The notes: generated by a model from the letters alone, not told the origin. 63,759 nucleotides of DNA from an uncultured Clostridium sp. (GCA_945919455.1 CAMEJH010000005.1:1-63759), one strand, 5' to 3'; counted from the stretch's first letter, positions 2,454-17,226 are shown. Numbers and translations: made by a program.

Positions 2454-3812
2454 TTACATATTTTTGTTTTTTAATGCCGAAAGTGCTCTATCCGCAAGCT
2501 TTTCGTATTTTAATTTTTTGTCTTTTATTTTTGTTTCAAGTTCAGGTAGTATTCCAAAATTAGCATTCATTGGTTGAAATTTTCTATTTTCTGTAGAGAT
2601 ATACTTTGCTAATGCTCCTATCATAGTTAAATCTGAAAAAATAGTCTTATCCTTGTTTTCAAATTTATGGCACGCATTTAGGGCAGCAACCATTCCAGAT
2701 GATATAGATTCTACATACCCTTCTACTCCTGTAATTTGCCCAGCAAAAAATATATTAGTATTACTTTTTAGATTATATGTATTGTCTAGTAATTTAGTAG
2801 AATTTATATATGTATTTCTATGCATTACACCATATTTTACAAATTCTGCATTTTCTAATCCAGGTATCATTGAAAATACTCTTTTTTGTTCTCCAAATTT
2901 AAGATTAGTTTGAAATCCAACTAAATTATATATTATTCCATTCGTGTCGTCTTGCCTTAATTGTACTAAAGCATATGGTCGTTTTGCAGTTCTGGGATCA
3001 TCAAATCCCACCGGTTTTAATGGTCCATATCTTAATGTATCAATTCCTCTTTTTGCCATTATCTCTAGTGGCATACATCCTTCAAATATTTCCTTTTTTT
3101 CAAAATTATGTAATGTTACTACTTCTGCATTTATAAGTTCATTACAGAATTTTTCATATTCTTCTTTGTTCATTGGAAGATTTATATAACTTGCATCTTG
3201 ATCTTTTATTCTTTTTCTCCATTCTTCTTCTGTTTCATTTTTTGCTTTTTCCTGTTCATATCTATTGCCATAAAATGCTATATTAAAATTCACGCTTTCT
3301 TTTGTTAATATAGGTGCTGCTGCATCATAAAAGTATAATTTATCTTCTCCTGTTATCTTAGATATTTGTTTTGCTAATCCTTCTGATGTCAGTGGGCCTG
3401 TTGCTATTATTACAATTCCTTCTTTACTTATTTGTTCTATATTTGTTATCTCTTGATGTATTATTTCTATTAGTTCATTTTTTTCTATTTGCTCTGTTAC
3501 TTTTTTTGCAAATATTTCTCGGTCTACCGCTAATGCTTGTCCTGCAGGCACCTGTGTTTCATCTGCTACTTCTATTAGTAATGAGTCCAATTCTCTTAAT
3601 TCTTCTTTTAATAATCCACATGCATTTGTATGTAAATTTGATTTAAATGAATTGCTACATACTATTTCTGCTAAGTTTTTGTTACTGTGTGCTTCTGTAA
3701 ACTTTACTGGTTTCATTTCGTATAATTTTACTTTTATACCTCTTTTTGCTATTTGATATGCCGCTTCACATCCTGCTAGCCCTCCACCTATTATTGTTAT
3801 ATAGTCTTTCAT
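2454..3812 (-). CDS. trmFO: Methylenetetrahydrofolate--tRNA-(uracil54-C5)-methyltransferase TrmFO
   Basis: 452 aa. N-terminal FAD fold IIGGGLAGCEAAYQIAKRGIKVKLYEMKP, with length and overall pattern typical of TrmFO/Gid. Confidence 0.9.
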   Translation of the reverse strand: MKDYITIIGGGLAGCEAAYQIAKRGIKVKLYEMKPVKFTEAHSNKNLAEIVCSNSFKSNLHTNACGLLKEELRELDSLLIEVADETQVPAGQALAVDREIFAKKVTEQIEKNELIEIIHQEITNIEQISKEGIVIIATGPLTSEGLAKQISKITGEDKLYFYDAAAPILTKESVNFNIAFYGNRYEQEKAKNETEEEWRKRIKDQDASYINLPMNKEEYEKFCNELINAEVVTLHNFEKKEIFEGCMPLEIMAKRGIDTLRYGPLKPVGFDDPRTAKRPYALVQLRQDDTNGIIYNLVGFQTNLKFGEQKRVFSMIPGLENAEFVKYGVMHRNTYINSTKLLDNTYNLKSNTNIFFAGQITGVEGYVESISSGMVAALNACHKFENKDKTIFSDLTMIGALAKYISTENRKFQPMNANFGILPELETKIKDKKLKYEKLADRALSALKNKNM

Positions 3813-3838
3813 AATTTTACCTTCTTTTTTACTTTATT

Positions 3839-3936
3839 TTTAAATACCAATATATTACTATTTCATAGCCAAAACATAGCTAATGTTTAACAATCTAAGC
3901 TTAGCATTATTCAATAGTAATATATTGGTATTTAAA
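3839..3936. repeat. Long-hairpin intergenic element, copy A (divergent core)
   Basis: Perfect 24-bp inverted arms TTTAAATACCAATATATTACTATT (3839-3862) and AATAGTAATATATTGGTATTTAAA (3913-3936). The core starts TCATAGCCAAAACATAGCT like copies B-D and then diverges (contains CTAAGCTTAG). Confidence 0.7.
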
Positions 3937-3955
3937 TAAAAATTCTTAATAATAA

Positions 3956-6900
3956 CTACTCAAATAATTTCATTATATCTTCTTTAGAAAGTTTACTAAT
4001 AAATGATGTCTTAGTATCAAGCATATTATCTATTAATTCAGACTTTCTTTGTTGCAATTCATATATTTTTTCTTCTATAGAGTTTTTAGTAATTAACTTA
4101 TATACTTGAACATTGTTTTTTTGTCCTATCCTATACGCTCTATCTGTAGCTTGATTTTCTGCAGAAGCATTCCACCATGGATCATAATGTATTACCATAT
4201 CAGCACCAGTCAAGTTTAATCCAGTGCCACCGGCTTTTAATGAAATTAAAAATACCTTAATATCTTTATTTTCGTTAAATTCATCTACCATTTTTATTCT
4301 GTCATCAACTTTGGTAGCTCCTGTTAATTTAAAGTACTTTATGTCTTTTTCTTTCAATTCATTTTCTATAAATTCAAAAACTGATGTATAACCAGAAAAT
4401 AATAAAATCTTATGTCCTGAATCTGTTGCATCTTTTACTATTTCTATGCATTGCTCTAGTTTACTACTTCCTCCAGTATAATTTTTTATAAATAGTCCTG
4501 GATGGCAACATATTTGTCTTAATCTTGTAAGTGCAGCTAGTACTTGTATATGGCTTTTTTCAAAGCCTCTAATGTTTATTGTATCTGCTACTTCCTGCTT
4601 TGCTTGAGCCAAATAATTTAAATATATTTTTTCTTGTTCTTCTTTCATTTGATTATTTAACACTGTTATAGTTTTTTCAGGCAATTCTGTTAGTACTTGC
4701 TTCTTTGTTCTTCTTAATATAAATGGTTCTATCAACATTTTTAATTTATTCATTGCTTTTAAATCATTATCTTTTACAATAGGTGTTTCAAAAGCTGTTT
4801 TGAATTTTTTATAGCTAAATAAGTAACCTGGCATTATATAATCAAATATAGACCATAATTCTGCTAATGAATTTTCTATTGGTGTTCCTGTTAAAGCATA
4901 TCTAGTATCTGCTAATATGTCTTTTACAGCTTTTGCATTTTGTGTATTACTATTTTTTAAATATTGTGCTTCATCAGCTATAGCATATCTAAATTTATAT
5001 TTTTGTTCTCTATATATTTCAATATCTCTTTTAAGTAAATCATATGATGTGATTATTATGTCAAAATCTTTTATTTTGCTTATTTGTTCCTTACGTTCTA
5101 AAGCGTTTCCCTTTATAACTAAAGTTTTTAGTTCATTTGTGAATTTTTTTGCTTCGTTCTGCCAATTTAGTGTTAATGAACTTGGACATATAACTATTGA
5201 TGCTCTTCTTTCTTGTTTTTCTCCCACATATCCTGCTATTATTGATAACATTTGTATCGTTTTTCCAAGTCCCATATCATCTGCAAGTATCCCTCCAAAT
5301 TTATAATTATCTAATACTTTTAGCCATTTATATCCTGTTTTTTGGTAATATCTTAATATTCCATCAAGATTAGCTGGAACAGTTATTTCGTCTCCTCCAT
5401 TTTCTTTGTCCAAACTTGATACTATTTCTTTATAGTCAGAATTTTTACTTATTTGTGTATTTGAAACAGTTTTTAATAATTGATTCAAGTATAAGCTTCT
5501 ATTAATTGGTAAATGTACATTTCCTTTTTCTAAGTCTTTATAGCTAATATCCATACCTGTCATTAGCTTATCAACAAATTCTATATCTGGATTTTCTTCT
5601 AAACTTATAAAACTACCATCTTTTAGTTTATGGTATTTCTTTTTTAGAGTATATTTTTCCATTATTTCTTGTAGTTCTTTTATATCTATATTTAAGTTGT
5701 TTAAATCTATACTTAATAAGTTATTTTCTATTTTAACTCCTAAGCTTCCTATTTTAGGTTGTTTTATTTGTTTAGTTTTAAAATTATCTGTTACCATTAC
5801 TTCAAAATTTTGCATATATTTATTTATATCATTTGATAAAAATTCAAAGATTTTATCATCATCTGGAAGTATAAAACATTCTTTTTGAGCATAATACATA
5901 AATCCTGTTTTTCTTATTATATTGATCGCTTTGTTCTCTGCTACTATATCTCTAGGGTATTTTATATCGATTTTTTGTTGTAATGGATTAAATTCTTCTT
6001 CTCCATAGCAGAACCTTGCATCAGCTATTATATATTCATTCTCGTCAAAATCTAAAAACATTTTTACTACTAATTTTTTAGGTTTGTATTTTTCAATTTC
6101 ATCTTCGTTTATGTCTTTAAATTCAATACCGTCCTTAATTTTAGGCAAAATTACTGAAAATAATTCTGGCAACTGTTCTGTGCCAAATATTAATTCTGTT
6201 AAAAAGTTTTCTTTAAAGATTTTCAACATTTTTAAAGTTGTTTCTTCATATTTTTTATTGCATTTATATAATGCATTTGCTTGTAAAATATATTGATTAT
6301 CCTTTCCTTGTAGTATTTCTATTTCTCGCAAAATATCAATATTTTCATTAATTGATATTTTATATTCATTTTCGCCCTTTTTTTGCATCACAAAATGCAA
6401 ATTAGGATTTTCATCTTTTAGTTCAATCCTACTTTCTTGATATTCCTTCTGGAATAATATTTCTCTTGATTTTAAAATATCAAAAATTTTATCTAAATCA
6501 CTATTACTTAATACTATATAACTTTCATTCATAGCTTTCCCATAATACCTAAAATTAGAGTTTGCTTCTGAATTAACAAAATGTATTATCTCTGCATTTT
6601 TTAAGATAAATTCTAATAGTTCTTGATCTTTCTCTTCAAAATTTTCTTTTTTATGTATAAATTCTAATTTACTTCCATATTTATATTTTTCTTTTGAAAT
6701 CATTCTATTGTAAAAATCAGACAAGTCTTTTAATTTATACATTCTTTGATTCCCAATTTTAAATTCTATTCTTAAATTGTTGATATATTTATCATAAATA
6801 AGTTTAGGCTCTATTCTTACTTTCTCTTTGTTTTCTTCTTGTTCGTTTGTTTGAGATATTTCTTGCATTTCTTCTGCATAGAATGTGTTTACTATCTGCT

Positions 6901-14924: not shown

Positions 14925-16166
14925 TTATTTTATATTCTCATCTTTTATATAATATTTAGTTCCAAGCATTTTATTTGGCAAATATTGTTGTTCCACCCAA
15001 TGACCAGGAAAATCGTGAGGATATAAATATCCTTCATGATATCCTAATTCTTGCATTTTTTCTATTGGTGCATTCCTTATATGCATTGGAATTTCTCCTG
15101 TGTCTTTATTCGCAACATCTTCTAGAGCTTTATTTATTCCTAAATATGTAGCATTTGATTTTTTACAATTCGCCACATATACAGCTGCTTCTGCAAGTAT
15201 TATTCGTGCTTCTGGCATTCCTACCATATGTACTGCTTGCATTGCAGATGTTGCTATAACAAGTGCTTGTGGATCTGCTAATCCTACATCTTCAGATGCA
15301 CATATAACTATTCTTCTTGCTAAAAATACAGGATCTTCTCCTCCATTTAAAGCTCTTGCTAAATAAAATAATGTTGCATCTGGATCTGAACCCCTCATTG
15401 ATTTTATAAATGCACTTATATTATCATAATGTGTATCCCCGTTTTTATCAAATAATGCTTTTCTATTTTGAATGCTGTTTTTTATTACTTCATCTGTTAT
15501 GTGTATATATCCATCTGCTCCCATATTGGTTGTTAATACCGCTACTTCAAGTCCATTTAAAGCTGTTCTTACATCTCCATTTGCTATATCTGCTATTTTT
15601 ATTAATGTAGAGTCCTCAATTTTTATACTATATTCTCCTAACCCATCTTTTCTCTCTAAAGCATTTTTTAAAATTTTATAAATATCATTTTCTGTCAATG
15701 GATTTAATTTTATTACCATAGACCTTGATATTAAAGCTTTATTTACTTCAAAATATGGATTTTCCGTAGTTGCTCCTATTAATATTATAGTTCCATTTTC
15801 TACGTATGGAAGCAATGCATCTTGTTGTAATTTATTAAATCTATGTATTTCATCAATAAATAAAATGCTTTTACCTGATGGGTTCATCATATAATTTTGA
15901 GTTTCTTCCACTACTCTTTTTATATCTGCAACTCCTGATGTTACTGCATTTATTTTATAAAATTTATATTTTGTTGTTTCACTTATTACTTTTGCAAGTG
16001 AAGTTTTGCCACATCCAGGTGGTCCAAATAATATAATGCTAGATAGCCTATCTGCTTTTATTGTTCTATATAATAATTTTCCTTCTCCTAATACATGCTC
16101 TTGCCCTACATACTCTTCTAAAGTTTTTGGTCTCATTCTATATGCTAATGGTTCTGTTTGATTCAT
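14925..16166 (-). CDS. rarA: Replication-associated recombination protein A (AAA+ ATPase)
   Basis: 413 aa. Walker A GPPGCGKTS, FIDEIHRFNK, and an MgsA-type C-terminal domain (DAHYD-like DTHYDNISAFIKSMRGSDPDA). Confidence 0.9.
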   Translation of the reverse strand: MNQTEPLAYRMRPKTLEEYVGQEHVLGEGKLLYRTIKADRLSSIILFGPPGCGKTSLAKVISETTKYKFYKINAVTSGVADIKRVVEETQNYMMNPSGKSILFIDEIHRFNKLQQDALLPYVENGTIILIGATTENPYFEVNKALISRSMVIKLNPLTENDIYKILKNALERKDGLGEYSIKIEDSTLIKIADIANGDVRTALNGLEVAVLTTNMGADGYIHITDEVIKNSIQNRKALFDKNGDTHYDNISAFIKSMRGSDPDATLFYLARALNGGEDPVFLARRIVICASEDVGLADPQALVIATSAMQAVHMVGMPEARIILAEAAVYVANCKKSNATYLGINKALEDVANKDTGEIPMHIRNAPIEKMQELGYHEGYLYPHDFPGHWVEQQYLPNKMLGTKYYIKDENIK

Positions 16167-16190
16167 ATTTCTCTCCTAATTTTTTTATTG

Positions 16191-16219
16191 ATTATATTAC
16201 CTTATTTAGAAAAAGTCAA
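16191..16219 (-). promoter_or_regulatory. Sigma-A-type promoter for rarA
   Basis: The minus strand reads TTGACT, a 17-nt spacer, then TATAAT, about 25 nt upstream of the rarA start. Confidence 0.45.
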
Positions 16220-16250
16220 TTCTTTTTTCGAACATTTTTTTGTAAAATAC

Positions 16251-16279
16251 TTGATTTTTATAATTTTTAATAGTATAAT
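16251..16279 (+). promoter_or_regulatory. Sigma-A-type promoter (left arm of the inverted cassette)
   Basis: TTGATT (16251-16256), a 17-nt spacer, TATAAT (16274-16279). Confidence 0.5.
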
Positions 16280-16343
16280 TGCTTGCAGATGAGAGAAGCA
16301 GAGTGTGGCGTGTCACTATCCTTCAAGAGAGGAGGCGATGCGT

Positions 16344-16496
16344 ATGTTAATAATAAATTCTTATTTAGTATTTATTTACATATTATTTATTTATGTCATA
16401 GTATTAACTGCAACCGCAGTAGCCTTATTCGTAGCACTAATTGTTACAATAAGAAAACTAGATAAAATAAAAAACACATCTCTGCCTAGTCATTAG
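16344..16496 (+). CDS. Small hydrophobic peptide (50 aa), candidate type I toxin
   Basis: GGAGG at 16331-16335, 8 nt before ATG 16344. Peptide is MLIINSYLVFIYILFIYVIVLTATAVALFVALIVTIRKLDKIKNTSLPSH: a hydrophobic helix plus a charged tail. The stop TAG lies in the terminator loop. Confidence 0.4.
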   Translation: MLIINSYLVFIYILFIYVIVLTATAVALFVALIVTIRKLDKIKNTSLPSH

Positions 16497-16552
16497 AGAT
16501 GTATTTTTATATCACTTTTGACACGCCACATTTCTGTGGTATCTCATCTTCT
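16470..16552 (-). ncRNA. Candidate ~80-nt convergent RNA overlapping the 3' end of the small ORF transcript
   Basis: Predicted only from the minus-strand promoter at 16559-16587 and the shared bidirectional terminator. It contains a CCACA-GAAA-TGTGG hairpin. Confidence 0.3.
16476..16502. terminator. Bidirectional intrinsic terminator
   Basis: ACATCTCT (16476-16483) pairs with AGAGATGT (16495-16502). It is flanked by an A-run upstream and a T-run downstream. Confidence 0.6.
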
Positions 16553-16558
16553 ATAATT

Positions 16559-16587
16559 ATTATACTCAATAATTTATAAAAAGTCAA
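16559..16587 (-). promoter_or_regulatory. Sigma-A-type promoter (right arm of the inverted cassette)
   Basis: The minus strand reads TTGACT (16587-16582), a 17-nt spacer, TATAAT (16564-16559). Confidence 0.5.
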
Positions 16588-16623
16588 ATAATTTTTTAAC
16601 TTTTTTTAAGAAAGGAAATGTAT

Positions 16624-17226
16624 ATGTTTGCTTATATTAAAGGTTCATTAGAAATGAAATTTAAAAATTATCTAGTTATAGATGTCGGAGGTTTAGGGTA
16701 TAAAATTTTTATGTCCGAAAATGCTATCAATACAATTGGAGAAATTGGAGATATTATAAAAGTTTTTACATATTACAGAGTTAGAGAAGATGATGTTAGT
16801 ATATTTGGTTTTAAAACACAAGAAGAACTTAGAATGTTTGAATTACTCTTATCTGTTAGTGGTGTAGGTGCAAAAAGTGCATTAGTTATGCTTTCTTGTA
16901 TTCAACCTTCTGACTTTGCTATTGCAGTTATTTCAAACGATGTTAAATTACTTACTCAAATTCCTGGAATAGGTGCAAAGTCTGCACAAAGAATTATACT
17001 TGAACTAAAAGATAAATTGAAAAAAGAACAATCTGAAGAAAAATTAGAAGAAGTTTCAAAATCTAAAAAATCTGAAATTAATAATAATGTTCAAGAAGCT
17101 ATTTCTGCACTTATGGTTCTTGGATTTACCAAAAAAGATATTGAAAAAGCTTTTGAACATCTTGATATTGATAATTTATCTCTTGAAGATCTAATTAAAA
17201 AGGGGTTAATTTTACTAACAAAATAG
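16624..17226 (+). CDS. ruvA: Holliday junction branch migration complex subunit RuvA
   Basis: MFAYIKGSL N-terminus and tandem HhH (LLSVSGVGAKSAL, LTQIPGIGAKSAQRI). I moved the start to ATG 16624, which gives better spacing to AAAGGA. Confidence 0.9.
   Translation: MFAYIKGSLEMKFKNYLVIDVGGLGYKIFMSENAINTIGEIGDIIKVFTYYRVREDDVSIFGFKTQEELRMFELLLSVSGVGAKSALVMLSCIQPSDFAIAVISNDVKLLTQIPGIGAKSAQRIILELKDKLKKEQSEEKLEEVSKSKKSEINNNVQEAISALMVLGFTKKDIEKAFEHLDIDNLSLEDLIKKGLILLTK

Follow-up and report, generated by a model that had tools for sequence, protein, structure and literature searches.

A mirror-armed ~340-nt module beside ruvA in an uncultured gut Clostridium points to a putative new type I toxin-antitoxin-like family

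Why does a short intergenic locus carry two convergent promoters whose transcribed leaders are inverted copies of each other? The question is raised by positions 16251-16587 of a contig from an uncultured Clostridium sp. (GCA_945919455.1 CAMEJH010000005.1:1-63759), where a hydrophobic open reading frame (ORF) of 50 amino acids (aa) lies between two inverted arms. The whole stretch of 63,759 nucleotides (nt) is called the window here, and all positions are counted from its first letter. Its host is an AT-rich member of the uncultured gut Clostridia, and the closest ruvA loci all come from metagenome-assembled genomes. A first-pass annotation had read the locus as a type I toxin-antitoxin-like system enclosed by an inverted-duplicated promoter cassette. 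We followed this up by computation throughout. Comparison of related loci indicates that the locus is one copy of a discrete, conserved module of ~340 nt which occurs at unrelated intergenic sites. Covariation between its arms further indicates that the inverted repeat is kept by selection for 5'-3' pairing in a read-through mRNA. The parts of the module are listed below from left to right.

16251-16256 (-35) and 16274-16279 (-10), plus strand: left (sense) promoter TTGATT-17-TATAAT, with a predicted start near 16286-16288.
16287-16315, plus strand: 5' arm of the mRNA, composed of AGAUGAGA, GCAGAG and UGUGGCGUGUCA, which pairs with 16519-16549.
16320-16324 and 16329-16335, plus strand: anti-Shine-Dalgarno (anti-SD) element CCUUC and Shine-Dalgarno (SD) region GAGGAGG, forming a small local hairpin.
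16344-16496, plus strand: peptide ORF of 50 aa, MLIINSYLVFIYILFIYVIVLTATAVALFVALIVTIRKLDKIKNTSLPSH, a putative toxin.
16469-16508: palindromic hairpin around the stop codon, with the stem 16476-16483/16495-16502 and an 11-nt loop.
16519-16551, plus strand: 3' arm of the read-through mRNA, composed of UGACACGCCACA, UUUCUGU and UCUCAUCU, partner of the 5' arm.
16552 to ~16464, minus strand: predicted antisense RNA of ~85-90 nt, starting with AGAAGAUGAGA.
16587-16582 (-35) and 16564-16559 (-10), minus strand: right (antisense) promoter TTGACT-17-TATAAT, taken from the promoter scan.

Both promoters, GATGAGA, the inverted 12-mer, the ribosome-binding site (RBS), the 50-aa ORF and the stop-codon hairpin had been listed by the first-pass annotation, and all were recovered in place. 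GATGAGA is located at 16288-16294 and its complement at 16542-16548. The 12-mer TGTGGCGTGTCA occupies 16304-16315 on the plus and 16519-16530 on the minus strand and has no further copies in the window. Its chance expectation is 0.01, and two copies were reached in none of 100 shuffles. On either side the promoter is followed by GATGAGA and, ~10-14 nt further on, by TGTGGCGTGTCA. Aligned over their columns the two arms are ~75% identical, close to the figure of roughly 70% given for these inverted copies before. GGAGG (16331-16335) is spaced by 8 nt from ATG 16344.

Relatives of the locus were searched with a profile of the peptide, which replaced a scan with a 14-base degenerate pattern that gave mostly random loci. 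The profile-guided scan of species-level genomes recovered 64 loci, all from uncultured gut Clostridia (humans, rabbits, goats, mice). We aligned 43 non-identical module copies, and individual tests used 36-43 of these. The conserved block extends from the left -35 to the right -35 box, while the flanks beyond are not alignable. Neighbouring genes vary (ogg/lonC, nifU/mnmA, the UvrD/PcrA helicase gene pcrA, a response regulator, rarA/ruvA), their orientation is mixed among the 43 copies, and there are usually one or two modules per genome. A second copy was not found in the window. At the protein level, homologues of the peptide form 46 clusters of ~50 aa with 57-100% identity, none of them named and none with a Pfam domain. 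A profile search of 1.84 billion protein representatives gave 119 close relatives of ~50 aa and nothing larger. An Rfam scan of 16100-16700 with E values up to 10 returned two chance-level matches only. Near-identical DNA is present in pig-gut, faecal and digester metagenomes.

Some further observations concern the copies themselves. Two copies can share a contig at a distance of 2-3 kb, as in L080 (1563-1715, minus; 4001-4153, plus) and in L240 together with L265. The two copies of L080 lie on opposite strands and their peptides are of different subtypes. At L217:2361-2500 and L248:2361-2500 the ORF and the right arm are kept; the left side is unrelated, with no recognisable left promoter or 5' arm, and these copies are possibly decayed or rearranged modules. 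In two DNA metagenomes (X1 and X2) the contig depth over 16546-16613, the segment with the right-arm promoter, is 5-10x the depth of the flanks, as would fit a community with many related copies of the segment.

What keeps the arms alike? In the minimum-energy fold the 5' arm (16287-16315) pairs with 16519-16549 over 26 base pairs. The window RNA from 16287 to 16552 reaches a minimum energy of -83.1 kcal/mol (z = -8.0; reverse strand z = -5.4), and the fold-back is part of the minimum-energy structure of 29 of 41 copies. Moreover the partners change together. At 16294:16542 there are 23 copies with A:T, 17 with C:G and 1 with T:G, and at 16312:16522 there are 26 with G:C, 12 with A:T and 2 with G:T. 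A parsimony count on a tree based solely on ORF and spacer gives about six switches for either of the two pairs, and mismatched intermediates are almost absent. For the 26-pair helix, the hairpin and the anti-SD helices taken together (alignment A3), 92.3% of the cells are paired, compared with 30-58% in slid controls. Changes on both sides of a pair were counted for 13 pairs in this alignment, versus 7.4±1.6 in shuffles, none of which (0/500) reached the observed number.

The two strands also differ in how they tolerate mismatches. A G·U pair on one strand is an A·C mismatch on the other. Computed as plus-strand RNA the arm duplex yields -40.5 kcal/mol, versus -32.5 kcal/mol as minus-strand RNA, and 40 of 41 copies do better on the plus strand (p = 3.5e-8). 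The pairing of cognate arms is likewise stronger than that of non-cognate ones (-40.5 versus -32.7 kcal/mol, p = 4.7e-8). The plus-strand asymmetry of the mismatches argues for selection on a plus-strand RNA that holds both arms. Covariation of the arms, combined with G·U tolerance only on the plus strand, makes it very probable that transcription of the mRNA continues past the hairpin and across the right arm. The annotation had raised the self-pairing of the ends of a read-through mRNA as a side remark; on this evidence it becomes the central point. The antisense overlap of 35-40 nt proposed there appears too short, and with an mRNA that very probably reads through the right arm it likely comprises the whole ~90 nt. 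Two metatranscriptome contigs bear on this region. One, of bovine origin, covers the ORF with hairpin and right arm and extends 22 nt past the -35 box; the second joins the 5' end of rarA to the ORF with ~88% identity. Both are unstranded and could be DNA.

The antisense promoter, TTGAC[TA]-17-TATAAT, is found in 41 of 43 copies with a mean match of 11.0/12 and a variable spacer sequence. The sense promoter is found in ~40 of 43 copies and is weaker (mean 10.0/12), its -35 box being TTGATT 18 times and TTGTTT 5 times. Judged by this sequence proxy, the antisense promoter is the stronger of the two. As the spacers vary between copies outside the hexamers, the likeness of left and right promoter is one of consensus, unlike the transcribed arms, which are specifically matched to each other. 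Of the inverted-duplicated promoter cassette, the mirrored transcribed parts therefore stand, while the promoters themselves are alike at the consensus level only.

The stem of the hairpin is invariant across the family. The TAG stop codon (16494-16496) straddles its loop and 3' arm, and does so in 38 of 38 copies. Following the hairpin, 38 copies show on average 6.4 U per 8 nt on the minus strand versus 4.3 (range 2-6) on the plus strand. Conserved Lys codons encode the U-tract of the minus strand. Hence it is doubtful that the terminator is bidirectional as proposed: the hairpin is shared, but the U-tract is consistent only on the minus strand, and a simple terminator scan of the window did not call the hairpin. 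It is likely the terminator of the antisense RNA and would be a leaky terminator, or none, for the mRNA.

From its predicted start the antisense RNA would consist of AGAAGAUGAGA, a stem-loop CCACA-GAAA-UGUGG (16539-16526), the 12-mer, a spacer, the terminator hairpin and the U-tract. Its predicted overlap covers the last codons of the ORF together with the hairpin and the 3' arm. The first stem-loop occurs in 41 of 41 copies with a loop that is mostly GNRA on the minus strand, and the predicted fold of the window antisense RNA has -26.2 kcal/mol (z = -4.7). This RNA resembles the 5' end of the mRNA because it is the complement of the 3' arm, which in turn pairs with the 5' arm. The annotation was right in that the repeats are inverted, unlike the direct repeats of par, and that the two 5' ends are alike. 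If both RNAs are made as predicted, this odd layout of identical 5' ends would be explained by two simple constraints.

The peptide consists of a hydrophobic stretch of ~30 residues followed by a basic tail. Residues 1-35 have a hydropathy of +2.5 and the tail, IRKLDKIKNTSLPSH, which contains 4 K/R and 1 D, one of -0.9. Near-invariant blocks are FIYILF, VAVALFV and VTIRKLD. Compared in pairs, 36 ungapped ORFs differ on average by 0.197, 0.089 and 0.233 at the first, second and third codon position, respectively, and the ratio of nonsynonymous to synonymous differences (pN/pS) is ~0.5. By these measures the ORF evolves as a hydrophobic coding sequence under moderate purifying selection. A widespread non-coding repeat with no conserved ORF, which the annotation had named as the case against itself, is not what we see, as the ORF is conserved and coding. 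The type I-like layout of a hydrophobic ORF with convergent antisense gene agrees with the coding ORF, the antisense promoter in 41/43 copies and the occurrence of the module at unrelated sites. In Pfam and NCBIfam the peptide has no match, and no toxin family scored below E = 0.1, including Fst/Ldr and TxpA/BsrG. A tblastn search of phage and plasmid collections gave no match either, whereby the low-complexity filter may mask so hydrophobic a peptide.

Directly before the hairpin (16464-16474) lies a run of 6-8 A, encoding Lys, which is found in the same place in L205, L254, L255, L261 and L263. Several homologues have frameshifted tails that start from the A run (KKHISVWS, KKHISASH, KKTHLC). 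This suggests homopolymer slippage or sequencing errors.

How could these parts act together? The moderate sense promoter would give rise to an mRNA for the 50-aa membrane peptide. Most of this mRNA would pass the stop-codon hairpin, and its 5' arm, AGAUGAGA...UGUGGCGUGUCA, would pair with the 3' arm and close the fold-back. The stronger, near-consensus convergent promoter in the 3' arm would produce an antisense RNA of ~85-90 nt that ends at the shared hairpin. Being the exact complement of the 3' arm and hairpin of the mRNA, it would be a look-alike of the mRNA 5' end and would compete with the 5' arm for the 3' arm. The resulting duplex of ~90 base pairs would likely be an RNase III substrate, as duplexes of 3'-overlapping systems typically are (PMC8167048). 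The freed 5' arm could then pair via GCGUGUC (16308-16314) with GAUGCGU (16337-16343) and thereby extend the anti-SD/SD hairpin. With the antisense RNA in excess, synthesis of the peptide would be off. The anti-SD/SD helix is paired in 81% of cells across the family with little covariation, and the ribosome site is occluded in every predicted conformer. Altogether we consider it probable that the module represents a type I toxin-antitoxin-like family in which 3'-overlapping antisense control is combined with a fold-back similar to that of hok and AapA1.

Several points weigh against this reading. Blocking the 3' arm changes the predicted openness of the SD-AUG region only little, from 0.30 to 0.19. 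An SD-covering hairpin that uses the 12-mer is 91.6% paired, but has 2 covarying pairs, a number reached by 390 of 500 shuffles. The copies are related, so the shuffle statistics overstate independence, and the number of parsimony switches depends on the ORF-based tree. The RNA evidence consists of the unstranded assembled contigs mentioned above, which may include DNA. Finally, known toxin families as well as phage and plasmid records lack a match to the peptide; the label toxin therefore refers to shape and layout only.

The last point leads to the explanation that survives best next to the type I-like one. The peptide could be a small membrane protein that does no harm and whose expression is tuned by mRNA fold-back together with a cis-antisense RNA, with the same anatomy but no toxin-antitoxin pair. 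This would fit the lack of similarity to toxin families, the merely moderate purifying selection, the usual number of one or two copies per genome and the neighbourhood of housekeeping genes instead of prophages or plasmids. We nevertheless regard it as unlikely, though worth keeping in mind. By its size, its long hydrophobic helix and its basic tail the peptide conforms to the pattern of type I toxins (PMC6563280), the antisense promoter is consistently the stronger one, and the ribosome site is closed in all predicted conformers. Moreover the scatter of the module over unrelated sites has a selfish-like appearance.

It is very improbable that the inverted repeat is a feature of the DNA with no role in RNA pairing, be it ends similar to a miniature inverted-repeat transposable element or a palindrome that gene conversion or template switching keeps uniform. 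Such a view would account for inverted repeats at both ends of a module found in many sites, and for arms that change together. However, mismatches that are G·U on the plus and A·C on the minus strand in 40 of 41 copies are not expected from a DNA process. Homogenisation would also erase the difference between the arm centres, but the left centre (GAAGCAGAG) and the right centre (UACCACAGAAA) are distinct in all copies. Promoter hexamers with variable spacers form the module ends, and the ORF is under coding selection. Target-site duplications are absent, as direct repeats in the flanks measure 5.8 nt for cognate and 6.1 nt for non-cognate flanks. Empty-site or excision junctions were not found in four DNA metagenomes.

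The setting of the window copy raises a further question, namely how the type I-like module relates to ruvA. It fills most of a 452-nt gap between the divergent genes rarA/mgsA (14925-16166, minus) and ruvA (16618 or 16624 to 17226, plus). As relatives align from residue 3 on, ATG 16624 is the likely start of ruvA. The gap between rarA and ruvA is only 124-183 nt long in most close relatives, where it is free of the cassette, the 12-mer and the peptide; the window thus carries an insertion of ~300 nt. In 68 ruvA loci of relatives the 12-mer is absent and the peptide has no match, hence the module is not ancestral to the gap. Two features outside the module are relevant here.

16588-16623, plus strand: A/T-rich stretch and ruvA ribosome-binding site GAAAGGAA, leaving no space for a promoter of ruvA's own.
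16227-16242: TTCGAACATTTTTTTG box, native to the intergenic region and outside the module, a candidate operator.

Apart from the interior of the ORF, the left promoter of the module is the sole plus-strand promoter-like site upstream of ruvA. Thus, judging from the layout, ruvA is probably transcribed from the sense promoter through the whole module and against the strong convergent promoter. A co-directional gene 26-50 nt past the right -35 box is found in 9 of 43 copies, i.e. the window and eight others. Two relatives show a ruvA promoter of the left module type (TTGATTTTTATAA...TAGTATAAT) with the module absent (L003:2865-3000 and L008:2849-3000). There (A)AGATGA or AAAATGA comes after the promoter, and the ribosome site of ruvA follows immediately. 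These two loci look like remnants after loss of the module body, that is the ORF and the right arm. Other relatives have a different ruvA promoter, TTGACTTTTTATTTTTTTATATTTATAAT.

This leads to a wider and more tentative reading, which we consider possible but somewhat doubtful as a whole. In it, the antisense RNA would mimic the 5' end of the mRNA and take over the 3' arm, switching the closed fold-back to an RBS-locked form and an RNase III substrate, a control logic that type I systems are not known to use. In addition the module would have been co-opted as a promoter or gate for downstream genes such as ruvA, pcrA and mnmA. If co-option holds true, the expression level of the downstream gene would depend on how sense read-through is balanced against the convergent antisense promoter. 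In the present case, a selfish-looking module wedged between promoter and ruvA may affect the expression of a DNA-repair gene. That the module is nothing but a leader or attenuator of the downstream gene, with the ORF as leader peptide and the hairpin as regulated terminator, is highly unlikely and the least plausible alternative: the nine closely spaced genes without a promoter of their own and a stop codon within the hairpin, which translation would melt, speak for it, but the downstream gene is convergent in ~16 of 43 copies, the co-directional genes are mutually unrelated (ruvA, mnmA, pcrA, response regulator), and neither a strongly conserved antisense promoter nor a conserved peptide sequence is expected of a leader.

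The TTCGAACATTTTTTTG box is located midway between the divergent -35 boxes of rarA and ruvA and is kept in all close relatives (L001-L021), including those that are cassette-free. It matches the left half of the Cheo/LexA box (CGAACAT). A reading as LexA box was rejected, since the window contains no full GAAC-N4-GTTC or GAAC-N4-GTTT and its other three CGAACAT matches are inside genes; a link to the SOS response is a lead only. TGTTCGC abuts the left -35 box in ~15 of 43 modules, and L220 and L227 carry AGAACATTTTTTTGC 21 nt upstream. TTCGAACATTTTTTTG and TGTTCGC may represent a shared operator.

Close relatives show the rarA-ruvA gap to be a hot spot of insertion. It contains one ORF of ~170 aa in L016:2310-3000, L018:2263-3000 and L021:2312-3000, two ORFs in L020:1769-3000 and a large minus-strand gene in L006:1501-3000. 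In L015:2673-3000 an element of ~200 nt with perfect terminal inverted repeats of ~26 nt (tttacaaattgataatatattgtttt...) is found. Furthermore rarA is inverted in L005, L007 and L009 (~1731-2969, plus), where it is co-directional into ruvA with a 31-nt gap, and in the distant relatives L024-L062 it is located directly downstream of ruvA (~3611-4849). Hence rarA is repeatedly rearranged around ruvA.

If the type I-like reading is true, a family would be added from uncultured Clostridia that are abundant in the guts of pigs, ruminants, rabbits, mice and humans. Its RNA logic, a fold-back mRNA with the antisense promoter housed in the 3' partner, would have been revealed by comparative sequence data alone.

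How does the module compare with known systems? The gene pairs bsrG/SR4 and txpA/RatA of Bacillus subtilis are alike in many respects. Their genes are convergent, the toxin is a small membrane peptide whose tail is charged, the antisense RNA has its complement in the 3' region of the mRNA, and the antitoxin promoter is the stronger one. SR4 binds the 3' end of bsrG, alters the structure around the SD and recruits RNase, with a promoter that is 6-10-fold stronger, and the 3' duplex of RatA and txpA is cut by RNase III (PMC8167048). A 3'-binding RNA which acts on the SD region would be shared by bsrG/SR4 and the module. In contrast to both systems the module shows no sequence similarity to them and no prophage location. 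Its antisense target would also pair with the mRNA's own 5' end, so that the antisense RNA copies that end. We know of no such copying for bsrG/SR4 or txpA/RatA.

The mRNA of hok is closed between its 5' and 3' ends via tac/fbi pairing. A long-distance interaction linking the 5' end to the 3' end exists in the aapA1 mRNA as well (PMC8167048). The module is thus similar to hok/sok (plasmid R1) and aapA1/isoA1 (Helicobacter pylori) in the closure of the full-length mRNA, seen in silico in our case. There, however, it is the 5' leader that the antisense RNA targets, and the fold-back opens upon 3' trimming, whereas the antisense RNA of the module would be encoded in the 3' arm and target the 3' arm. 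Its 5' part reads the same as the mRNA leader and does not complement it. Moreover the hosts of hok and aapA1 are Gram-negative and their peptides are unrelated.

The par locus of Enterococcus faecalis pAD1 (fst RNA I / RNA II) shares the convergent transcription to a common hairpin, the repeats at both RNA 5' ends and a hydrophobic peptide with charged tail (PMC8167048). Its repeats are direct and the 5' ends complementary, as opposed to inverted repeats with 5' ends alike in the module, and the peptide of the module has 50 instead of ~33 aa and no match to the Fst family.

Within the class Clostridia, type I systems are experimentally known only from Clostridioides difficile (PMC6563280). 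Here CD2517.1/RCd8, CD0956.2/RCd10 and other pairs consist of convergent overlapping genes, and the toxins of 34-59 aa have an N-terminal membrane helix and a Lys-rich tail (PMC6563280). Compared by description, the C. difficile systems have prophage and CRISPR-array links and SigB promoters, whereas the module lies beside housekeeping and DNA-repair genes and has sigma-A-type promoters. Type I toxins in general share the pattern of size, hydrophobic helix and charged tail without sequence homology (PMC6563280). Going by its sequence, the module belongs to none of the Fst, TxpA/BsrG or other toxin families of the libraries searched. Taken together the comparison suggests a putative new type I family that is characterised by its mirror layout.

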